NCBI GenBank assembly: GCA_965207735.1 | Contig: OZ242296.1 | Coordinates: forward strand, 2,592,001-2,656,000 | From: Candidatus Versatilivorator sp. | Lineage (GTDB): Bacteria; Acidobacteriota; Terriglobia; Versatilivoradales; Versatilivoraceae | Reading direction: 5' to 3' | Length of the DNA: 64,000 nt | Shown: positions 5,184-64,000 of the stretch, piece after piece | How the letters are laid out: each line of letters begins with the position of its first letter | How positions within the stretch are numbered: position 1 is the first letter of the stretch | Translations under genes and position numbers: made by a program | The notes under the pieces: generated by a model | What the model saw: only the letters and a program-made list of their open reading frames with translations | Database searches by the model: none | Told to the model about the DNA's origin: nothing

Positions 5184-5414
5184 CAATCTACCTCCGATCG
5201 ACCGTGGGACCGGTCCCGATTGGGGTTTTGGAGACAGGAAGGAGACGGCGTCACTACCGAAGAGCGGGCACCGAGTGGATCGACCCGGGACCCTTCCCCG
5301 AGGAATCAGCCGCCATTCCGAACCACACCGACCTTCGTAGCATATCCCATCCCATCCTCCGGGGCAACGTTGCCGGACCTCTCCGGCCGGAGGCCCCCGC
5401 CGCACTTCCTTGGT

Positions 5415-5828
5415 CTGAAACAACCGACAAAAGACAAAGGAAAAAGAGTTATCCACGAAGGGGCACGAAGAACGACGAAGGGACACTAAGGCGCTGAGGT
5501 TGGCCGCGACGGGGTACCAAGTTCGCGAAGGGTTGATCGATTTCCGATTGTTTCCCTCTAAGTATGATCCGCACGCCAGGGCGGGGGCGGGGCTTGTCTG
5601 AAACAACCGAAAAAAGACAAAGAAAAAGACTTATCCACGAAGGGGCACGAAGAACGACGAAGGGACACTAAGGCGTTGAGGTTAACCGTGACGGGGTACC
5701 AAGTTCGCGAAAGGATGGTCGATTTCTGATTGTTTCACTCTCGAATGATCCGCACACCAGGGCGGGGCCCTGCTTGTCTGAAACAACCGAATAAAGACAA
5801 AAGGAAAGAGAGTTATCCACGAAGGGCC
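5415..5828 (+). repeat. Tandem array of ~180-bp non-coding element (two full units plus one partial)
   Basis: CTGAAACAACCGA starts at 5415, 5598 and 5778; the units are near-identical along their whole length. Confidence 0.95.
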
Positions 5829-5856
5829 GACAAGAGTCATCCACCAAGGAAAACGG

Positions 5857-6060
5857 CGAACCACGAATGGACACGAATGAACACCAATAAACGGATTGAT
5901 GAGTTGTTGATTGGAGGGTGGGACAATCGACATCGAGGGGTTATCTACGAAGGACACGAAGTCATACCAAGGTAGCAGCGTTGCAGAAGCATTTTGGTGC
6001 CGCTTCTCGTTCGAGTGAGTCCACCTGCATTCGTGTCTATTCGTGTTCATTCGTGGTTCG
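5857..6060. mobile_element. MITE-like element with 32-bp terminal inverted repeats built from CACGAAT 10-mers
   Basis: 5857-5888 cgaaccacgaatggacacgaatgaacaccaat matches the reverse complement of 6029-6060 at 28/32 positions. Confidence 0.75.
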
Positions 6061-6310
6061 TCTTCATTTAATAATCCTGTGCATCCTGTGCATCCATGTT
6101 CAATTCATAGTCCTTCTCGATTGATCTTTCCCGTGGCGGGCCTTGGCTGTGCCCAACGCCCCGATTCCCCGTCAGCGTCCCGTGCAGCGGACTCTGGTCC
6201 CATTAATCCTGTCCCTTGGGTTGCCATGTTTCGGAGTGCAACGGCGCAGATTTGATGAAACGCGACGAGTCTCTCGAACCGACCGTTTCCCTGTGGTACC
6301 TCCATCGGAA

Positions 6311-10352: not shown

Positions 10353-10474
10353 CAAGTTCCTCCGCAGGTCGGCTCTTGGACTTCCGGCGGCCCCAGCCCC
10401 CATTTCTCACCAGGTCGCTGGATCCATCTTAGCAAGAAGTCCTTGGCTGTCCGTTGCTTTTGTCCGCTATCTGT

Positions 10475-10514
10475 ATTCGTGTATATTCGTGGTTCGCCTT
10501 CATTCGTCTTCATT
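10475..10514. repeat. Solo arm of the CACGAAT inverted-repeat family
   Basis: attcgtgtatattcgtggttcg...cttcatt matches 6039-6068. Confidence 0.65.
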
Positions 10515-10618
10515 AACGATCGGCTGTTTCTGCTCTGAATGACCCGCAAGGCAGGTTGGGTGCCGGATCTGCCTCAGACAACAGCAACCGGGGCGGCAAT
10601 GCAGCACAACCCTCGCTC

Positions 10619-34449: not shown

Positions 34450-34659
34450 CCTGCGCCTCCTGAAACGCGGCCGCCCGGATTCGACCGCCGGGCAACCCTA
34501 CGATCTCAAAGCTTCCGTGCCAAAACGCCTCAGGATGATAACAGCTTTTCACATGGAGTGTGGCCTGCATTCGTCATTTGGAGGTTGGATGGATCCTGTG
34601 ATCGTCACTCACGGGACGCCGCGTTTGCCCCCCTCCGGGACCGACAGGAACGGACGTGC

Positions 34660-34836
34660 CTGAAACAAACGAAAAAAGACAATAGAGTTATCCACGAAGG
34701 GCCACGAAGAACGACGAAGGGCCACTAAGGCGTTGAGGTTAACCGCGACGGGATGCCAAGTTCACGAAAGGATTATCGATTTCCGATTGTTTGACTCTAG
34801 AATAATTAGCCCGGCGGGAGGGGGCCGGGCTTGTCT
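34660..34836 (+). repeat. Dispersed copy of the ~180-bp element
   Basis: ctgaaacaaacgaaaaaagac...ccacgaagggccacgaagaacgacgaagggccactaaggcgttgaggttaaccgcgacggg...gggcttgtct. Confidence 0.93.
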
Positions 34837-40965: not shown

Positions 40966-41152
40966 CAGGCAAGCCGGGGCCCCGCCCTGGCGTGCGGATC
41001 ATACATAGAGTGAAACAATCGGAAATCGATCAACCCTTCGCGAACTTGGTACCCCGTCGCGGCCAACCTCAGCGCCTTAGTGCCCCTTCGTCGTTCTTCG
41101 TGCCCCTTCGTGGATAAGTCTTTTTTCTTTTGTCGTTTGTCTGTTGTTTCAG
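40966..41152 (-). repeat. Dispersed copy of the ~180-bp element (reverse orientation)
   Basis: Reverse complement matches unit 1 at 5415-5600 over its full length; fills the gap between two convergent genes. Confidence 0.95.
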
Positions 41153-41910
41153 ACAAGCCGGTACTCGCGGATCGTGATTCCGGCTTCTTCGAACAACTGA
41201 AACGTCGAGTCGTTCAAGGGATACCCCATATTGAACACCACCTCGGCGATCCCGCTGTTGATGATCATCTTGGCGCACATCAGGCAGGGCGAAAAGGTGG
41301 AATAGAGGCATCCGTCCTTGACGCTGGTGCCGTGGTAGGCCGCTTGAGTGATGGCGTTCTCCTCGGCGTGGGAACACAGGCACTCATCCAGTCGGGTCCC
41401 ACTGGCTGCAAGTCCGCCGCAGCGCGGACACCCACCCTCGTTGCAGTTCCTCGTTCCGCGAGGGGTGCCGTTGTAGCCGGTGGAGATGATCCTGCGGTCT
41501 TTCACCACCACCGCCCCCACTTTGCGCTTGATGCAGTTGCTCCGCATGGACGCCACCTGGGCAATCCTCATGAAATACTCATCCCAGGACGGCCGCCGCG
41601 ACCCGGCCATTTTCTGCCGAACCAGGCGATTGAGACTCGCCAACGCTTCCACTTCCGATTGGCGAGGCGACAGCACCAGGTCAAAGGGCACTGCCGGCTC
41701 CACGGATTCACCGATGCAAACCAGCACCATTCCCGCTTCCTGCAGGGACTCCCAATCGGGAGGCAGCCGCCGCTTCCGAAAAACCAGGTGCTGCGACTGG
41801 TCCCGCGGCAGGTCCTGGGTGGACCGGCACGAACCGAACCCCTTCTCGTTCAGGTCATTTTGCAGAGCGAGGGTCAGTGGCGAATCTTCCCCGAACAACC
41901 CGATAATCAT
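41149..41910 (-). CDS. dCMP deaminase with degenerate N-terminal domain
   Basis: RPSWDEYFM, RSNCIKRKVGAV, GYNGTPRG, HAEENAI, SPCLMC; start re-called to ATG 41910 (MIIGLFGE). Confidence 0.88.
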   Translation of the reverse strand: MIIGLFGEDSPLTLALQNDLNEKGFGSCRSTQDLPRDQSQHLVFRKRRLPPDWESLQEAGMVLVCIGESVEPAVPFDLVLSPRQSEVEALASLNRLVRQKMAGSRRPSWDEYFMRIAQVASMRSNCIKRKVGAVVVKDRRIISTGYNGTPRGTRNCNEGGCPRCGGLAASGTRLDECLCSHAEENAITQAAYHGTSVKDGCLYSTFSPCLMCAKMIINSGIAEVVFNMGYPLNDSTFQLFEEAGITIREYRLV

Positions 41911-42060
41911 CCTGCAATCCCCTTTATCCAGCTCACCCCCAAAGCGGTCCAGGCAGAGACCCGTCTTGGAGCGATTGCCCACGGCGACTGTTGCCGGCTG
42001 GTCCAGATTACCATAAGATCCCGATGGTGCGAGCATGCCCCGACACTAGGAGAAAAACCC

Positions 42061-48791: not shown

Positions 48792-48798
48792 CGTTTAC

Positions 48799-48970
48799 CT
48801 GAAACAACAGAAAAAAGAGTGATCCACGAAGGGCCACGAAGAACGACGAAGGGCCACTAAGGCGTTGAGGTTAACCGCGACGGGATACCAAGGTCACTAA
48901 AGAATTTTCGATTTCTGATTGTTTCACTTTCGTATGATCCGCCCGGCAGGCCGGGGGCTGGACTTGTCTG
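48799..48970 (+). repeat. Dispersed copy of the ~180-bp element
   Basis: ctgaaacaacagaaaaaagag...ccacgaagggccacgaagaacgacgaagggccactaagg...gacttgtctg; 7 nt from the pyc ATG. Confidence 0.93.
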
Positions 48971-55926: not shown

Positions 55927-56265
55927 GTTGGACCTCCAGGAACGCCGGGAAGAACAGGCCGAGTCAAACCGGGAACACGGATTGAAATCGGCCTCCCCAT
56001 GTAGCGCAAACGAAAGGACGATTATATTCGTTTCAGGAAGGTCATCAAGCCCGCGAATGTCAGAGAGGCTGTGCCTCAGGCCGATAGGCAGGAATAAAGA
56101 TACCAGCGAAAGGGAAGAACCCCGAATAAACGCGAACAGACTGATTGATCGATGGTTGATTGGGGGAGGCGAACATGTATTCCACGTTTCCTGCAGCTTC
56201 TCATACAGGTTCTCAAATCACTGTCCAAAGAAATCGTGGGGCGGGGGACAGAAACCAGAACCTGG

Positions 56266-56292
56266 TTATTCCAGTAATTCAACAACGTCCCC
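56266..56292. repeat. Inverted-repeat site (right-end type) abutting RHS fragment
   Basis: ttattccagtaattcaacaacgtcccc, near-identical to 57436-57462 and 58034-58058. Confidence 0.85.
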
Positions 56293-56300
56293 GAGTTTTC

Positions 56301-57190
56301 AGGTAACGAGTGCCGGGCCGGGCCGGAGCCGTCCCCCCGAACTCGGCCACCAGCTGCCCCAGGACGTTGTAGACATAGGTGGTGGTGACGCCGCTCGATC
56401 CGCCGACCTCCTTCCGGACCCTTCTCCCCTCTCCGTCATAAGCATAGGCGGTGTCGCTGTCGGTGCCGGTGGGGTGGTCGAAGGCCACCAGGCGGTTGTC
56501 CCCGTCGTATTTGAAGGCGTTGGCGGCCCAGTCGGCCTTGAGGTTGCCGGCAGCGTCGTAGGCGACGATGTTCACTCCCTTGACGCCTGCCAGCCGGTTG
56601 GTCCCAGCGGCGATGTCGGCCGTCGACTGGGGTGTCAGCGCCTGGTTCGACCCGTGGGCGGCCCCCGCCGTCACCCGCCGGTTGCCGTAGCGGTCGTAGG
56701 CATAGGTCTGCGACCAAGCCGTGCCGCTGCCGCTTTCGGCGGCCGAGCTCAATCGGTTCAGCGCGTCGTAGGTGTAGGCCTGGTTTTGATTGAGCGAGGC
56801 CCCTACCCGGATCCGCTGGCTCAGGACGTTGCCGTTGTTCGAGGCTGTCCCGTAGGAGTAGTCGAGCAGCAGCAGGCCCGCCGTAGGCCTCGTCCCGGTG
56901 GCCGTCAGCCCCCCGGTGGCCATGGCCGTCCCGAGGCCGATCTGGGTCGGCTGCAGGCGGACGTTATAGCGCCGCTGCTCCCACAGCCCGTTGCCCAGAA
57001 GTAGCTGCTTCACCCCTCCGTGGGGCTCATACCCGACGGCGTTATCCCCCCTCCCCCCGGCATACCAGCCGTCGATGCCCGTCTTGGCCCCCGCAATCCT
57101 CCCCGCCCCGTCGTAGACGTAGTCCACCACCCGGTCGGAGGGGTAGCGCTGCGAGGTCAGGTTCCCCGCCCGGTCGTAGGCGTAGGCCAT
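56301..57190 (-). pseudogene. Orphan RHS core fragment, paralog of 60293-61170
   Basis: Near-identical to the main RHS from MAYAYDRAGNL to PGTRYL with a 12-nt indel; lacks the DHLGS...DPxG core end and toxin tip. Confidence 0.85.
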
Positions 57191-57200
57191 TTGGGCGTTC

Positions 57201-57466
57201 AATAGGGGACGTTGTTGAATCAGTGGAATTTCGCTGTCAGGCGATTCTGTCGACGCCTGGACAGGGAGGAAAAAACGGAGGGGAAATCCCGGACATAGTG
57301 GGGAACTGCTTGGTGCAACGATTCGAACGCGTATTGAGGACGAATCGTGGCGTCAGTGTCTGCGAGTTTGCCGAAGCGCTCGGGAAGCCATCTGCATCGC
57401 CGTTTTATTCAGTCGCGAACAAGAAACTGAGAAAGTTATTCCAGCAATTCAACAACGTCCCCTATT
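57201..57466. mobile_element. MITE-like element with perfect 20-bp terminal inverted repeats
   Basis: aataggggacgttgttgaat (57201-57220) and attcaacaacgtcccctatt (57447-57466). Confidence 0.82.
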
Positions 57467-57467
57467 T

Positions 57468-57635
57468 CCCCCGCTGAAGTGGCCCACCTCCACCACCCGC
57501 CCCAGATTATCCAGCCTGGTCCGGGTCCATCCCGACTTGGTCCTCCCCCGGTAGGGGTTCGAGGTCCAGGTGTAGTAGCCGGGCGAGGACCCATCCGTCA
57601 GGCGCCGGTAGACTGTCTTGATCTTGATGCCCGAA
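57468..57635 (-). pseudogene. Second RHS fragment (divergent paralog of ~61815-61970)
   Basis: Minus strand reads GIKIKTVYRRLTDGSSPGYYTWTSNPYRGRTKSGWTRTRLDNLGRVVEVGHFSG, versus GIKVATHYLRSGTSSTTTTSNPYRGTTKSGWTRTRLDNLGRVVEVGRFSG in the main gene. Confidence 0.8.
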
Positions 57636-57888
57636 GTCGTCGGGGCGTGGGCGGTCGTTTGGGGGGGGAAGAGATCTCTCAGGCTGCCGGCCGGCCGTTC
57701 CGTCGGCAGGACAACAGATTGAAAGGGCTATTCGGTCGAAAGGGGTGAAACGGAGGGATTCACAGGTCGATGTCGGCGCCGGCGAGAGTGACCCTTCAGC
57801 TATGTGGGGCTCTAACTGGGGAAGTACACTGGGGAAGTATTCAATGGCGGTGCACTTGACTCAAGGGTGCAACCTCTGGAGACGGAAA

Positions 57889-58060
57889 CAGGGGATGTTG
57901 TTGAATTGCCGGATTAACCTCTCTCACACCGAGTTGTTGGAAGAGCCCGGATGGTCTCGGATATAGGTTCCGCACCAGGCAAACCACTCCAACACCTTCA
58001 TCGCCAACGGATTACAGAATCGCTAGTTCAAGCTATTCCAGTAACTCAACAACGTCCCTG
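57889..58060. mobile_element. Second, shorter MITE-like element of the same IR family
   Basis: caggggatgttgttgaattgccggatta ... tattccagtaactcaacaacgtccctg, an imperfect inverted pair. Confidence 0.7.
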
Positions 58061-58107
58061 AATTCCCTCTTAACAAATCCACTGTTTCGCACAACCAATT
58101 GCAGACA

Positions 58108-59322
58108 TCACATCTTATCCAGAAACTTCCGGATCCGTTCCACTACCTTGTTCTCTTTAGCAAGTTCGCATTGCCAAATGACCAGCACGTCCCAACCCGC
58201 TTCAGCGAGAGCCTCTTGGTCTTGCGCGTCTCGTTGGTCGATGTCGCGTAGCCTCCGCGACCAGTAATCATAATAGTACTCATCAGCCTGGTCCTCCCTG
58301 CATTCGGGCAGGTCATGCCGATGCACACGACAAGCGTAATAGAAGATCACCTTTTGCCGGTCCGGGAAGACCAGAGCGGGACAGCCGGGAAGGTCCTTGC
58401 GGTCGAGCTGACAATGGTAGCCCATCGATTGCACGAGCTGGCACAGCTGATTCTTTTCAGGCAGCGCTTGAATCTCTAGATAGGGGGGAGTGTAGTCTCT
58501 TCGCAACGGAACAGTAACCCTATTCAGGGACGGCAACGTCTGCAAGGAAGACAGATCCTTGTCGGCCGTGACGTGTAAATCAACAATCGACACCCACTCG
58601 AGGCTTTCGCTCCCTGACAGGAATTTGAGACTCGGGAGAGGGCCACAGTTTTCGAACCGCACTTTCTTGAGACGCTTCATCGAAGCGAGGCGGGGAAACA
58701 TGCTAATTTTCTTGCAAGCATAGACTTCCAGTTCTTCAAGATTGGACAGCTCCTCAATGCCCTCGAGACTGGTCAGCTTCGTGCAGATACATAACTCGAG
58801 AGTCCGCAGCTTGGTAAGCTTCGAAATGCCCGCAAGGCTACACAACTTCCTCGAATAGATCTTCAGGTTTTCGAGCTTCCGCATGGACGCAAGCATACCC
58901 AGGTCTTCCCCAGGGTACGAATCGATGGTCAAGTACTCCAAACGATGGCATTTGTCCAGATTCCTGGTTTTTTTCGACCAACGACAGTACAAACTCCGCA
59001 ACTGCTTGAATACTCCTAGGTCAATGGGGCGCTTCAGATTGACCTCAAATGACAGGTGTTCGATCCCCTTCCGGCACATCAAGGGACTAAGATCGTTGAC
59101 GTTCCAACTGAAGACCTTAAATCCGGTCACAGAAGTCGGAACCTCCTCTAGAAAATCAAGGTGTTCGTCTGGCCAAACTGGAGAGCGCCCATCCCCATCC
59201 AGAGTTAGGGTAAGTACACCTTCGCTCTCAATCACAGAGGCAAATTCCTGCGACCAGGACTGCCGCAAAACCAAGCAGCGACCAAAACGCCCATATTCCC
59301 TGATATATACCCCCCTCCCCAT
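58108..59322 (-). CDS. Leucine-rich-repeat candidate immunity protein fused to a degenerate Vsr-like domain
   Basis: LRR units (LENLKIYSRKLCSLAGISKLTKLRTLELC, LTSLEGIEELSNLEELEV); C-terminal DLPGCPALVFP..KVIF..C..HRH...YW...RD...GWDVLVIWQC; lower GC; directly downstream of the toxin. Confidence 0.8.
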   Translation of the reverse strand: MGRGVYIREYGRFGRCLVLRQSWSQEFASVIESEGVLTLTLDGDGRSPVWPDEHLDFLEEVPTSVTGFKVFSWNVNDLSPLMCRKGIEHLSFEVNLKRPIDLGVFKQLRSLYCRWSKKTRNLDKCHRLEYLTIDSYPGEDLGMLASMRKLENLKIYSRKLCSLAGISKLTKLRTLELCICTKLTSLEGIEELSNLEELEVYACKKISMFPRLASMKRLKKVRFENCGPLPSLKFLSGSESLEWVSIVDLHVTADKDLSSLQTLPSLNRVTVPLRRDYTPPYLEIQALPEKNQLCQLVQSMGYHCQLDRKDLPGCPALVFPDRQKVIFYYACRVHRHDLPECREDQADEYYYDYWSRRLRDIDQRDAQDQEALAEAGWDVLVIWQCELAKENKVVERIRKFLDKM

Positions 59323-59352
59323 AAAAGAGATCCCTCCATTGCACCGAAAGTC

Positions 59353-62300
59353 CTATCGTCCTTGCTCTAGCTCCAATTGCTGCCGCCGTTGCTTGGAAAC
59401 CGGATTACGCTGGTTCGAAACCATGGGTGAATCCTTCACATTATCACCCCCGACAATCTTCTTAAGTCTATCGGATTCTGCAAGCTCTCGCTTCGTTTTC
59501 CCTCCGCGCACTTCCTTCACCGTGACTTGGGTGCCCTCGGGGAGCGTTCCTGACCTCATATGCTGCTGAAGTCGTTTCTGAGGATTGCCGGATTGGCCGA
59601 CATATTTTTTGCCAGTATCGTCAACGAATTCGTAAATTCCCTCCTTGACCGGGACGGTCATCTTGCCCTTACCGCTGGCCGCGCGAACAACGGCAGTACC
59701 TTTGTCAACCCGGTTGACCGCCCGTGCCACTCCACCCGCTGCCCGCGAGGCCCTGATGGCGGTGGCTGCCCCACCCGGCACTCCCGGTATGGCGGTAGCA
59801 GCTACATCCACAACCACCCCGGCAAGATCGACGGCGGCGGCTTTGTAATTTCCTTCTGCGATGTTGACGGCAGCGGATGCCAGTCCGATGGTGACGTTGA
59901 AAACATCCCAGGGAGATTCAAGGACGTTGCCGGTCCTGTCGACGTACTTGAGGGGGCTGTTCCGGGTGTAGGTGTAGAGATTCCAGCTCTGGGGATCGGC
60001 TGCGCCCTGATCGGCGAAGGGGGCATCGGCGGACGTAAACCGTCCTCCTGCCCCGCTAAAGTAGCGTGCCCCGAAGTAATCGAGCCCGGACTCGTTATCC
60101 CTTTCCTTGCCGGTAAACTTCTGGGCGGGTCCGTCGGCGCGGGAGGCGGTGTAGCCCGTGACCCCCGTGGCCTGGCCCCGATTCCCCAGGCCGGCGCCGA
60201 TCTCCTCCCCGAAGGGCAGGTAGTCGTGGCGGGAGAGGACCGACTGGTCCTCCCCGGTCACGACGCGGGTGCTGCCGAGATGATCGGGGGTGAGGTAGCG
60301 GGTCCCCGGCCGGTCCGGAGCCGTCCCCCCGAACTCGGCCACCAGTTGCCCCAGGACGTTATAGACGTAGGTGGTGGTGACCCCGCCTGAGCCCCCGACC
60401 ACCTTGCGGACCCTCCGGCCCTCTCCGTCATAGGCGTAGGCGGTGTCGCTGTCGGTGCCGGTGGGGTGGTCGAAGGCCACCAGGCGGTTGTCCCCGTCGT
60501 ATTTGAAGGTGTTGGCGGCCCAGTCGGCCTTGAGGTTGCCGGCAGCGTCGTAGGCGACGGTGTTGACTCCCTTGGTGCCTGCCAGCCGGTTGGTCCCAGC
60601 GGCGATGTCGGCCGTCGACTGGGGCGTCAGCGCCTGGTTCGATCCGTGGGAGGCCCCGGCCGTCACCCTCCGGTTGCCGTAGCGGTCGTAGGCGTAGGTC
60701 TGCGACCAAGCGGCGCCGCTGCCGCTTTCGGCGGCCGAGCTCAATCGATTCAGCGCGTCGTAGGTGTAGGCCTGGTTTTGATTCAGCGACGTTCCCACCC
60801 GGATCCGCTGGCTCAGGACGTTGCCGTTGTTCGAACTGGTGCCGTAGGAGTAGTCGAGCAGCAACAGGCCCGAGCCGGCCGGGGTCAGGCCGCCCGTGGC
60901 CTTGGTTGACCCCAGGCCGATTTGGGTCGGCTGCAGGCGGACGTTATAGCGCCGCTGCTCCCACAGCCCGTTGCCCAGAAGCAGCTGCTTCACCCCGCCG
61001 TGGGGCTCATAGCCGACGGCGTTATCCCCCCTCCCCCCGGCATACCAGCCGTCGGCACCCGTCTTGGCTCCCGCTATCCGCCCCGCCCCGTCGTAGACGT
61101 AGTCCACCACCCGGTCGGAGGGGTAGCGCTGCGAGGTCAGGTTCCCCGCACGGTCGTAGGCGTAGGCCATGGTGTAGGGAGGGTTCCCCCCGGTCCTCTG
61201 GGTGCTCTCCAGCACCCGCCCCAGCGCGTCGTAGCGGTTGTAGGCCGTCCGGGTGACGTCTGTCGTGCCCTTCTTCGCCGTCACCGAGCACAGCCGCCCT
61301 CGGGAGTAGCTGCCGCAGCTGTCATAGGCGTAGTCGACCCGGGTGGTCCCGAGGCTTACGGCAGTGTCGCTCCCCGTGTAGCTGTAGCTGCGCCGGGTCA
61401 GACGGTCCAGGCGGTCGTAGGTGTAGGCGGTCACCACCCCGCGGGCGTCGGTCCTTTGCGTCAGGTTGCCGTTGTTGTCGTAGGTGTAGGCGACGGTCCC
61501 GCTTTCGGGATTGGCGGCCGAGGTCAGGCGCGAGAGGCTGTCGTAGGCGAAGGTCCGGGTCTGGCTGCCCTGGGTGACCCCGGTCAGGTTGTCGAGGGCG
61601 TTGTAGGTGTAGGAGGTCCCCTGGTTGGGCGAGCCGACTGTGCCCAGGGCGGGGGGTGAGCCGGTGGGCTCATCCACCCGCACCAGGCGGCCGAGCCCGT
61701 CCAGACGGCTGCGGCGCGTCTTGCCGGCCGGGTCGGTCACGGTGGTGTATTCCCCGTCGTAGGCGGTCGCGGTCTTGCCCAGGGTGGGGGCGGCGCCGGC
61801 CGAGGGCTTGGCGGCCCCGCTGAAGCGGCCTACCTCCACCACCCGACCCAGATTATCCAGCCTGGTCCGGGTCCATCCCGACTTGGTCGTCCCCCGGTAG
61901 GGGTTCGAGGTGGTGGTGGTGCTCGAGGTCCCCGACCTCAGGTAGTGGGTCGCCACCTTGATGCCGGCCGTCTCCGAGTCGTAGGACGAGCAGTGGGCGT
62001 TGCGGTCAGACCCGGCCGGAAGCGGCGGCGCGTCTCCCTCGTAGCCGCGGACCAGCCTCACCCTTCCCAGCCCGTCGTAGTCGGTCACCGTCACCAGCTT
62101 CCCGTCCCCCTTGGCTCCCAGGTCGGATCGCACGATCATCCGCCGCTTCTCGTCGCAGTGCCAGCTTTGGGTCCGCCGCTCCTCGCTCTTCCCCGAGGAC
62201 TCCTTCACCAGGATGGCCCGGCCCACGTCGTCCAGCCCGGTCAGGGTCGCCACGCCGTTGTCCACGTCGGTGGATGAGGTCACCTGACCGGTGTGGAAGT

Positions 62301-64000
62301 CGTAGCCGTAGGTCATCGTCCGCGACACCCCGGTGCCGGAGGCCTCCACCACCCGGGTCGGGTAGAGCTGCGAGATCGACGGCGAGCCGCTGCCGGCGAT
62401 GGCCCCGTAGGTCCAGCGCGTCACCGTCCCCCGCCCGTCGGTGGTCGAGGTCCGGTTGCCGTGGCTGTCGTAGGCGTGCGAGAGGGTGAAGGAGTTGGCC
62501 GAGGTCAGCGTCCCCGACACCACCCCCGAAGCATTGGACTTGCCGATCTTCTCCCCCGTCAGGTTCCCCCGGGTGTCGTAGCTGAACTCCCGCCGCGACC
62601 GCTTCGTTCCCCCGCCTTCCCGGACCTCGGTCGAGGCCTTCAGCGTGAGCCGGCGGGCCGAGTCGGGATCGTAGTAGGCGTCGTCGTCCGAGGTGGCGGT
62701 GTCGGTGGCTGCCGGGGTCGCCGACCGGTAGGCGTGGGCGGTGGTGCGCCGCTTGCTCCCGCGGCTCCGGGTCGGGTTGCCGCTCGCATCGTGCACGGCG
62801 GTGTAGTCGACCCAGTCGTACTCCTCCACCCGGGTCAGGTTCCCGTTCTTGTCGTAGGCGTAGTCGGTGACCGCCGTCTTGTCGGTCGTCCCCTGCTCGG
62901 TCCGGTACTCCGACTTCACGTAGGGGTTGGCCTGAAGGATCGAGGCCCGCGTGATTCCAGGCGACCCGATGGATGGGATGTTGTAGGCCCACTCCCGCTC
63001 CATCACCCTGGAGAGCTTCGAGTCCAGGCAGTTCGGCCCCCCCAAGGGAATGGTGGCCTCCTCGCAGTACTCGACCTTCGCCAGCAGGCCCCCGAAGGCG
63101 GCGTTGCGGCCGTAGGTCTCCCGCCTCTTCCCCCCTCCCGGGGTGGTGATGACGGCCTGGAGGTTGGGCGCGATCCGGTAGTCCCAGCTCTCGGTCTGCC
63201 TGGCGCTGCCGAAGCCGGTCGGGTAGCTGACGCTCTTGGCCGTGATGGCGTTTTCCGCCGCCGCCTGCGCGTTGTGCAGCGCCGAGGCCGACTCCATGTC
63301 GGCGTAGTCCTGCACATAGGTGTAGGTGGCCTTGGCTCCCCAGGGCATGGTTGCGGTGCGCAACTCCCCCAGCCCCCGCGAATGGGGCGCGTAGGGGGCG
63401 CCTGAAGGGTTGCTCTCGGCGCCGTTATAGGTGAACCGGTAGTCGAGACCCCCCACTTGGGAGGGCAGCACGATGCGGGCCACCATCCGCAGGTCGCCGG
63501 CAATGAAGCCCACCGTGTCCTCGCTGTTGGTCGTCGAGGTGGCGGTGCCCGCCTCGTTGTGCTGGATCCTCCGGATCGGGTAGGTGCGGTTGACGCTCGT
63601 TTCCCCCCACTCCACCGTCCAGGTCAGATCCTCGCCCCCGGCCCCCTTTCCGGTGATGGTCTGGCGGTTCGGATCCGGCCGCTGATTCTCCCCCGGCTCG
63701 ATCCGGATCGTCCGCCCCGCCTCGTCCCGGATCAGATCGTAGGGAGCGTCGTCGTTGTCCAGCAGCCGGCTGACGGTCACCGCGCCGGCGTCGCTGTCGT
63801 TGGGGTCCAGGAAGCGGTTGGCCATCAGCCCCACCCCCTTCACCTGACGCCCGTCGGGAAAGGTCAGCGTCCAGGGGTTGTCCTGCCACTGATAGACGTC
63901 GAGCAGGGTCGCCGAACTGCCGGTTTCGAAGTCCAGCCGCAGGTAGGTCCCGTCGGTGCTGTAGTAGCTCACCGTGCTGTTGGCCGCCGGGGCCGTCCAT
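59353..64000 (-). CDS. RHS/YD-repeat polymorphic toxin with C-terminal GIY-YIG nuclease (N-terminus outside window)
   Basis: YD repeats, PDHLGSTR, FTGKERDNESGLDYFGARYF, NLYTY..NSPLKYVDRTG, then a hydrophobic linker and EGIYEF..KKYVGQS..RLQQH; frame open to the window edge. Confidence 0.92.
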   Translation of the reverse strand, partial: WTAPAANSTVSYYSTDGTYLRLDFETGSSATLLDVYQWQDNPWTLTFPDGRQVKGVGLMANRFLDPNDSDAGAVTVSRLLDNDDAPYDLIRDEAGRTIRIEPGENQRPDPNRQTITGKGAGGEDLTWTVEWGETSVNRTYPIRRIQHNEAGTATSTTNSEDTVGFIAGDLRMVARIVLPSQVGGLDYRFTYNGAESNPSGAPYAPHSRGLGELRTATMPWGAKATYTYVQDYADMESASALHNAQAAAENAITAKSVSYPTGFGSARQTESWDYRIAPNLQAVITTPGGGKRRETYGRNAAFGGLLAKVEYCEEATIPLGGPNCLDSKLSRVMEREWAYNIPSIGSPGITRASILQANPYVKSEYRTEQGTTDKTAVTDYAYDKNGNLTRVEEYDWVDYTAVHDASGNPTRSRGSKRRTTAHAYRSATPAATDTATSDDDAYYDPDSARRLTLKASTEVREGGGTKRSRREFSYDTRGNLTGEKIGKSNASGVVSGTLTSANSFTLSHAYDSHGNRTSTTDGRGTVTRWTYGAIAGSGSPSISQLYPTRVVEASGTGVSRTMTYGYDFHTGQVTSSTDVDNGVATLTGLDDVGRAILVKESSGKSEERRTQSWHCDEKRRMIVRSDLGAKGDGKLVTVTDYDGLGRVRLVRGYEGDAPPLPAGSDRNAHCSSYDSETAGIKVATHYLRSGTSSTTTTSNPYRGTTKSGWTRTRLDNLGRVVEVGRFSGAAKPSAGAAPTLGKTATAYDGEYTTVTDPAGKTRRSRLDGLGRLVRVDEPTGSPPALGTVGSPNQGTSYTYNALDNLTGVTQGSQTRTFAYDSLSRLTSAANPESGTVAYTYDNNGNLTQRTDARGVVTAYTYDRLDRLTRRSYSYTGSDTAVSLGTTRVDYAYDSCGSYSRGRLCSVTAKKGTTDVTRTAYNRYDALGRVLESTQRTGGNPPYTMAYAYDRAGNLTSQRYPSDRVVDYVYDGAGRIAGAKTGADGWYAGGRGDNAVGYEPHGGVKQLLLGNGLWEQRRYNVRLQPTQIGLGSTKATGGLTPAGSGLLLLDYSYGTSSNNGNVLSQRIRVGTSLNQNQAYTYDALNRLSSAAESGSGAAWSQTYAYDRYGNRRVTAGASHGSNQALTPQSTADIAAGTNRLAGTKGVNTVAYDAAGNLKADWAANTFKYDGDNRLVAFDHPTGTDSDTAYAYDGEGRRVRKVVGGSGGVTTTYVYNVLGQLVAEFGGTAPDRPGTRYLTPDHLGSTRVVTGEDQSVLSRHDYLPFGEEIGAGLGNRGQATGVTGYTASRADGPAQKFTGKERDNESGLDYFGARYFSGAGGRFTSADAPFADQGAADPQSWNLYTYTRNSPLKYVDRTGNVLESPWDVFNVTIGLASAAVNIAEGNYKAAAVDLAGVVVDVAATAIPGVPGGAATAIRASRAAGGVARAVNRVDKGTAVVRAASGKGKMTVPVKEGIYEFVDDTGKKYVGQSGNPQKRLQQHMRSGTLPEGTQVTVKEVRGGKTKRELAESDRLKKIVGGDNVKDSPMVSNQRNPVSKQRRQQLELEQGR

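Follow-up and report, generated by a model that had tools for sequence, protein, structure and literature searches.

An abundant short repeat of Candidatus Versatilivorator is a non-autonomous derivative of an IS110 element whose predicted bridge RNA may target the element's own end

Genome-editing tools are now being developed from bridge recombinases according to the IS621 rule, by which two guides in each loop of the RNA pair with opposite strands of a DNA duplex; in IS621 itself, the 5' guides of both loops are complementary to the opposite strand, the bottom one, where it adjoins the core (PMC11208160). For IS621, single-stranded circles and half-match reactions were reported in one study (10.64898/2026.08.31.748434), and copy-out with top-strand insertion was likewise reported for CazIS110 (10.1101/2025.10.25.684509), whereas duplex excision substrates were shown instead for IS621 in another study (PMC13626964). 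Tandem non-coding units have been described beside IS110 elements in what are termed expanded IS110 loci (n = 468 in the survey; bioRxiv 10.64898/2026.08.14.744561). The closest published case to the repeat considered here is that of ISPpu9 and MITEPpu9 (the ssr9 module) in Pseudomonas putida KT2440, where a gene-less module that carries the boxes of the IS forms circles (PMC12288879), and the repeat unit would work like MITEPpu9. The existence of an IS110 hitch-hiker is itself of a known kind, since MITEPpu9 has been published.

The window analyzed in this study is a stretch of 64,000 nucleotides within the single 5.26-Mb contig of the Candidatus Versatilivorator sp. genome (G000). A preliminary description of this stretch, made from the letters alone, reported a non-coding element of about 180 bp in six copies. 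The repeat was indeed present at all six places, but the copy placed at 5778 matched over its first ~55 nt only and lacked a closing end box, and the window total is five full units plus one truncated start. The boundary had been set at CT(G); the crossover determined below moves the starts to 5410, 5593, 5773, 34655, 41157 (minus strand) and 48794. The features of the repeat in the window are as follows.

5410..5592, plus strand: unit 1, a complete non-autonomous element of 183 bp
5417..5423, plus strand: GAAACAA subterminal inverted repeat, separated from the core by 5 nt and equal to the IS110 right end read backwards
5548..5554, plus strand: TTGTTTC, the partner of this inverted repeat, located 38 nt in from the opposite end of unit 1
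5562..5568, plus strand: distal 7-nt site GTATGAT, complementary at 6 of 7 positions to the third guide (ATCATTC) of the predicted IS bridge RNA
5569..5584, plus strand: end hairpin CCGC...GCGG, which covaries among copies and is followed by a fixed 8-nt spacer (5585-5592)
5593..5594, plus strand: CT recombination core common to units 1 and 2, reading AG in the transposase direction
5593..5772, plus strand: unit 2, a complete element of 180 bp, with the following core CT at 5773-5774
5773..6225, plus strand: unit 3, with a conserved start to ~5828 and then a mosaic interior in common with family members of 300-570 bp
10522..10573, plus strand: decayed end box of the repeat family (E 0.006 within the window), absent from the preliminary description
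34655..34829, plus strand: solo unit of 175 bp upstream of ribH, with its right core at 34830-34831
40974..41157, minus strand: solo unit of 184 bp between two convergent genes
48794..48962, plus strand: solo unit of 169 bp upstream of pyruvate carboxylase, also found in genome G002, with its right core at 48963-48964

The left core of unit 1 is worn: it reads TT at 5410-5411 or, if one extra base is allowed, CT at 5409-5410. Tandem units had been said to share their junction, and the CT core at 5593-5594 does belong to units 1 and 2 alike. Unit 3 resembled the other units over its first ~55 nt only, the remainder being a different interior, and no closing end box was found up to ~6225. Low-complexity CACGAAT/ATTCGTG repeats occurred at window positions 5857-6068 and 10461-10514 (inverted at 5857/6029 and repeated at 10461), and these turned out to be the interior of another size class of the repeat family. 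At the locus of the 34655..34829 unit, genome G002 has a similar unit and genome G005 a different unit of ~390 bp with similar ends. The unit at 40974..41157, the start box of which gives the stop codon of a deaminase-domain (ribD-like) open reading frame (41149-42036), has grown to an array of ~1.1 kb in G002.

When unit 1 was used as the BLASTN query, the whole genome returned 341 hits, 177 of them at least 140 nt long (~180 near-full copies), and 76 copies covered unit 1 from end to end with a mean identity of 91% to their own consensus. A profile of the right-hand 52 nt recovered 321 ends in the genome at E 0.01 or better, and the profile matches spanned 48 kb, or 0.92% of the genome. Long units were arranged in 124 single, 28 double and 10 triple clusters. 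Exact start boxes numbered 215, compared to 0 in the reversed-genome control; 178 of the 215 reached an end box within 3 kb, and 113 were preceded by an end box. The distance from start box to end box was ~61 bp in 18 cases (ends only), 140-199 bp in 114 and 280-899 bp in 25, and the interiors of these size classes differed while the ends were common. Unit DNA was found in 12 of the 13 other genomes of the genus and in 0 of 27 genomes outside it, and in several of those 12 genomes the matches listed were to the interior only (best hits at query positions 27-107). The nearest-neighbor identity had a median of 94%, with 10 of 76 copies at 98% or more, and the copies are mostly not recent. The units showed no clear pattern of orientation relative to neighboring genes as called by a crude gene caller, no leading- or lagging-strand bias (94/187 loci, with the skew poorly resolved) and no enrichment of the start box as a stop-codon donor beyond its nearness to genes (16/102 versus 27/204 in other frames).

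Claims about the content of the unit fared differently. The absence of a conserved open reading frame was borne out, with no frame open in more than 13 of the 76 full copies. The suggestion that the unit encodes a structured RNA resembling a bridge RNA was not: a bridge-RNA profile run on the genome matched the 10 copies of the IS described below and not the units, Rfam 15 gave 0 matches in the window at the gathering score, and the predicted bridge RNA is accordingly carried by the IS and not by the unit. A structured RNA inside the unit was rejected as a candidate, the consensus folds being weak on both strands and two-sided changes being essentially confined to the end hairpin. Of two internal structures named previously, the inverted match exists and corresponds to the subterminal inverted repeat of the parent IS110; the CGCGA...TCGCG palindrome is also present, but two-sided changes were absent from it in 76 copies. 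Covariation was seen instead in a GC-rich hairpin near the right end, which the preliminary description did not name.

The statement that only CT(G) is common to both ends reflected three worn copies, and genome-wide, both ends read CTTG(T/C)CTG. In 64 solo units, the concordance between left and right junctions was at the level of chance at every position, and therefore the CTTG(T/C)CTG ends are not a target duplication, in agreement with the earlier claim that none exists. A classical MITE was discarded as a candidate on the same absence of target-site duplication and on the repeats, which are subterminal and asymmetric. In the same solo units, the better-conserved side changed after the second base (position 1) and before the third (position 2), the left junction being conserved in 59, 53 and then 63 of 64 units and the right junction in 62, 58 and then 54 of 64, decaying thereafter. 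The T/C base after the left core followed the length subtype of the IS in 10 of 10 copies, and the right one varied. Filled and empty sites were compared over 1.6 Mb of the 5.1-Mb genome G002, where both flanks could be mapped for 10 of 78 G000 blocks; 4 of these were empty, bounded by the core, and 6 held another allele, while none of the 9 blocks mapped in the opposite direction was empty. The empty site at G000:C1:3895195 has CTTG, as does the right junction, and the left junction has CTTA (base at position 3). The crossover is therefore at the first CT of CTTG(T/C)CTG, 5 bp to the left of the boundary originally drawn. A core at the second CT was ruled out by the solo-unit conservation, the empty alleles and the tracking of the T/C subtype. 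In one further pair of filled and empty sites, an identical non-consensus base (CTTTCCTG) is present at either end, and a single crossover at the first CT would not account for it. An additional CTTG(T/C) stands in front of 14 of the 215 start boxes in the genome, e.g., at G000:C1:758915, which suggests a 5-bp register slip at some insertions. Recurring sequences foreign to the family were also seen after the right core (CT-TGTTAGCAATTG, CT-CGCGGACAAAC and CT-TACCTGAGAATATG) and are probably the starts of other repeat families or of sister elements.

The autonomous partner is a 1.68-kb repeat located outside the window, bounded on each side by the boxes seen in the unit and carrying a 468-aa open reading frame on the opposite strand. 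The encoded protein matched PF01548 (DEDD_Tnp_IS110; 79.6 bits) and PF02371 (Transposase_20; 45.7 bits), both over the cut-off, and the element was assigned to the IS110 family, IS110 group, by its DEDD RuvC-like and Transposase_20 domains, its dinucleotide core and the absence of a target duplication. Its 10 copies are 98 to 100% identical, provide the sole PF01548 matches in the genome and are each followed directly by a unit start (10/10). Since the same two ends bound all 10 IS110 copies, the unit is a non-autonomous IS110 derivative, having both ends of the IS and no transposase. That the unit is a real and abundant element of this type with an identified partner was judged very probable, and the IS110 likely moves the units in trans, as the shared ends and the guide matches described below would imply. 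The earlier reading of a non-autonomous unit with a CT core, mobilized in trans by an IS110 recombinase and able to insert into its own end, holds in its central points, and the cognate element lies outside the window. A plasmid search returned, among the matches listed, only IS110 relatives of less than 50% identity and no named element.

The layout of this pair recalls ISPpu9 in several respects (PMC12288879). ISPpu9 also belongs to the IS110 group, has a long non-coding region upstream of the transposase gene and an AG core in the transposase direction; its ~43-bp left box with a palindrome and its 16-bp right box resemble those of the G000 IS110, and comparison by eye of the published boxes revealed an inverted GTTTG/CAAAC pair that is separated from the core by 5 nt, as here (PMC12288879). 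MITEPpu9 is likewise a gene-less module that occurs with the same boxes beside the IS, alone and in tandem (PMC12288879). It has eight copies, compared to ~180 near-full copies and 321 end boxes here, and it encodes a small RNA while ISPpu9 targets REPs (PMC12288879), whereas the unit family has several interiors and is predicted to target its own end. The ISPpu9 paper maps no guides (PMC12288879), and the likeness described here is one of ends and layout. The element differs from the IS1111 group, in which subterminal repeats of 7-17 bp lie near both ends and the RNA lies downstream of the transposase gene; here, one repeat lies 33-42 nt inside the element end, and the RNA is predicted upstream of the transposase gene.

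The ends themselves raised the question of a different enzyme. A Y1/HUH enzyme (IS200/IS605, RAYT or IS91 type) could read the end hairpin and the CTTG tetranucleotide; a terminal CTTG is IS91-like, the lack of target duplication fits, and the genome does contain one weak Y1_Tnp match (29.9 bits). We regard this alternative as very improbable. Only one long coding element was found with these ends, and its product is a DEDD recombinase; the same ends are defined by the covariation of guides over 45 IS110 relatives. Among the long units inspected, no Y1 gene bounded by the ends was found, nor did any inspected long copy enclose a GxxExxY gene, such PDDEXK_3 matches being limited to five fragments in the genome; the HUH/REP and GxxExxY options that had been offered earlier were not supported.

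Close homologs of the transposase were found in 5 of the 13 other genomes of the genus. Genome G009 has 124 junction motifs and no PF01548 match (a large orphaned family), G013 has the IS and 1 junction motif, and G001 has neither, and the element and its IS110 partner do not co-occur strictly. An older REP-like or otherwise mobile family might be envisaged that IS110 merely targeted, with the likeness to the IS ends secondary and the arrays produced by homologous recombination or gene conversion. The unit-rich G009 without an IS110, the presence of the CCACGAAG interior without ends in several relatives, the seating of 10 of 10 IS copies at a unit start and the targeting of REPs by IS110 elements (PMC12288879) are all in its favor. 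Nevertheless, it was considered improbable as an account of the units, which have the two IS ends complete with the 47-bp hairpin box and the pair of inverted repeats; the 61-bp ends-only units and units with unrelated interiors have these same ends, and the empty alleles are precise at the CT core. It is probably correct only with regard to where the interior came from, and derivation of the unit from the IS110 remains the preferred reading.

In G008 and G013 (L055, L096-L104), an IS variant of 79-80% identity has been retargeted to arrays of the 7-mer TGGTCAG: its guide has changed to GGTCAG, and the copies are seated in TGGTCAG repeats. This variant has its own ends-only miniature beside two copies. 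IS110 relatives of other taxa (L111, L114, L155) likewise have end boxes on their flanks, either their own or those of a sister, and thus self-insertion and miniatures recur in the IS110 clade.

The long non-coding end upstream of the IS110 transposase gene contains a predicted RNA with two loops, and its guides change in step with the target and the donor. When 45 relatives (56-100% protein identity) were aligned, a closing stem and two internal loops were predicted in the ~250 bp that precede the transposase gene; the single bridge-RNA sequence folded no better than its shuffles (z 0.62). In the assembled contigs of 4 RNA runs, the bridge-RNA stretch was patchily covered, and such contigs show no strand, ends or level. 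Seventy-three loci were examined for guides, of which 48 were parsed; 46 of these were distinct, and 45 had an anchored hairpin. The 28 loci dropped comprised 25 unparsed, 2 duplicates and 1 without the hairpin, and more distant homologs were left out. Because the guide parser was written by eye on the same loci and the relatives are not independent, the shuffle values below are not to be read as probabilities. The 3' strand of loop 1 (target guide) is identical to the 5 nt and AG that precede the element; with guide-independent boundaries, 28 of 40 left flanks matched exactly, with a mean of 4.47/5 versus 1.83 shuffled. The 3' strand of loop 2 (donor guide) reproduces the final 5 nt and AG of the element and was exact in 44 of 46 loci. 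In G000, the target guide (AGACAAG) and the donor guide (AGGCAAG) are nearly identical, and consequently the element's own start and end are its predicted target, which would explain the head-to-tail chains seen in the genome. Agreement of target and donor guides at 4-5 of 5 positions was found in only 7 of 45 relatives, 5 of the 7 being from this genus.

These features resemble IS621 in the DEDD and Tnp20 domains, in the two-loop RNA upstream of the transposase gene with the target loop before the donor loop, in the CT core on the recombining strand and in 3' guides that pair with the core plus 5 nt (PMC11208160; PMC13626964). Unlike in IS621, the CT strand here is antisense to the transposase, the 5' strand of the target loop matched nothing tested, and the donor 5' guide matched a distal site on the same strand. 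On the predicted guides, then, the G000 partner does not follow the IS621 guide layout. The 5' strand of loop 1 gave no match to the flanks in four modes (smallest P value, 0.063; 1.95/7 versus 1.69 beside the core). The 5' strand of loop 2, referred to as the third guide, matched the bases beside the core no better than shuffles (1.52/7 versus 1.50), and instead matched a 7-nt site inside the element, behind the hairpin and ~30 bp inside the other end. The order at the donor end is core, 8 nt, hairpin, 7-nt site, 5-7 nt and inverted repeat.

With the test anchored on a hairpin starting 8 nt from the core, the third guide matched the distal site exactly in 31 of 45 relatives and at 6-7 of 7 positions in 44 of 45 (mean, 6.67 versus 5.12 shuffled; with one locus per guide, n = 9, 6.56 versus 4.64). 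Position 4 of the third guide has four states and agreed with the DNA site in all 45 relatives, whereas its best pairing partner within the RNA reached 0.61. A perfect 5-bp stem beginning 8 nt from the core was present in 40 of 45 relatives versus 2.2% of shuffles, the hairpin varying in length from 12 to 21 nt with the spacers fixed, and the outer bases of the inverted repeats covaried (2.17/3 versus 0.86; n = 42). The units retain these features: in 230 parsed of 321 ends, pair 2 of the hairpin was CG in 166, TA in 29 and CA in 16, pairing peaked at the 8-nt spacer (0.89 versus 0.43-0.62), and the distal site read GTATGAT in 109, GAATGAT in 71 and GGATGAT in 33, the commonest being a 6/7 match. 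Solo targets showed no excess of the hairpin (19/102 versus 706/3000) or of the distal site.

All three working guides appear, from the alignment, to be complementary to one DNA strand, and this suggests a fold-back donor, with the donor DNA read as a folded single strand. Such a donor would fit the reports of single-stranded circles and half-match reactions for IS621 and of copy-out with top-strand insertion for CazIS110, and it bears on the current dispute as to whether IS110 circles are single or double stranded. The same IS110 partner might instead use an ordinary double-stranded donor, for which only the core-proximal guide matters (a half-match). In that case, protein would bind the inverted repeats, and the hairpin together with the distal site would serve an antisense promoter or the folding of the RNA, as with Asr9 in ISPpu9. 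We consider this possible but doubtful. The distal site (TATGAT/GAATGAT) resembles a -10 box, and in minimum-energy folds of the naked junction, the inner hairpin forms and the outer stem is absent. Half-match, donor-only recombination has been reported for IS621 (10.64898/2026.08.31.748434), and an ISPpu9 mutant with an altered end palindrome still gave circles by end-point PCR (PMC12288879). On the other hand, a promoter would leave unexplained why the site tracks the guide variants ATCGTTC, ATCCTTC, CCTATC and ATTTTTC, a complementary RNA partner for the third guide was not found in the alignment, and variable hairpin length with fixed spacers fits extrusion.

Under the preferred reading, the unit would likely be copied and inserted in trans by the IS110 DEDD recombinase with its predicted bridge RNA, joining at the first CT without target duplication. 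The shared ends, the position of the core, the empty alleles and the covariation of guide and DNA are the observed grounds for this explanation, to which the steps below add a model. The recombinase would first join both ends at the CT core into a circle. The target loop would then read CT and the next 5 nt only (guide AGACAAG, target CT-TG(T/C)CT), probably assisted by the adjacent GAAAC repeat. With a donor guide (AGGCAAG) so close to the element's own start, every element start would become a target, yielding head-to-tail arrays and the seating of all 10 IS copies in front of a unit. Taken jointly, these three steps are held with high confidence. In a fourth step, for which we consider the case evenly balanced, the other donor guide (ATCATTC) would pair behind the end hairpin on the same strand, the donor being engaged as a folded single strand or an extruded cruciform. 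At the circle junction, the outer stem would consist of the inverted repeats and the inner stem of the hairpin, leaving a bubble of ~13 by 15 nt whose two sides would face the two donor guides, reproducing the IS621 geometry on a single strand. Movement, circles and RNA ends stand as predictions. The full proposal is put forward tentatively, at somewhat short of even likelihood: a widespread IS110 clade that recombines a folded single strand, with a hairpin-capped bubble as donor and a 7-nt half-site as target, and that in this genus, by convergence of the target guide on the donor end, has become a self-seeding amplifier, spreading ends-only and cargo units over ~1% of the chromosome and making landing sites for a group II intron.

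Expanded IS110 loci share with this system the tandem duplication of the IS, the lack of target immunity, one-sided donor matches and reintegration of partial circles; they are local expansions, and the accessible part of that report describes no genome-wide bloom, no target guide equal to the donor and no distal guide (bioRxiv 10.64898/2026.08.14.744561). A DNA hairpin also contributes to IS110 recognition in ISPpu10, where it lies in the target and overlaps the guide-bound sequence, whereas here it lies in the donor (bioRxiv 10.64898/2026.03.19.712850). If the fold-back reading is true, the hairpin-capped bubble donor would be an RNA-guided counterpart of the integron attC site. A search of open papers, apart from ISfinder and preprint supplements, found no description of a distal same-strand donor guide or of a target guide equal to the donor end. 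The IS110 clade here may depart from the IS621 rule in a way that a few point changes could probe. A donor of one folded strand, if true, together with the natural 61-bp ends-only unit, would point to a minimal single-stranded cargo, and the hundreds of natural copies are a ready mutational scan of end tolerance.

Other mobile elements use the units as sites. A group II intron of 2 kb that encodes a 452-aa reverse transcriptase (L048) was found at G000:C1:409328 and 10 other sites, and Rfam run on the IS end and on L047/L048 matched group II intron families only (in L047/L048). Since 11 of the intron's 15 two-kb copies lie in the CCACGAAG motif of the repeat family, most of its homing sites are provided by the unit. 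An element with a 455-aa open reading frame (L049), presumably IS1380-like, is inserted in units at CTAA (G000:C1:2736436, 3001663, 4362179 and 5248576), and three of these elements carry a short intron without an open reading frame in their own inverted repeat. Elsewhere in the window, 56279-63972 is an Rhs polymorphic-toxin locus. It comprises a 1539-aa Rhs protein, which matches Ntox10 and GIY-YIG weakly, together with an orphan Rhs piece and an LRR protein whose match to Vsr is weak. Repeats of 35-40 nt occur at this locus in both orientations, at 56263, 57201, 57433, 57884 and 58030.
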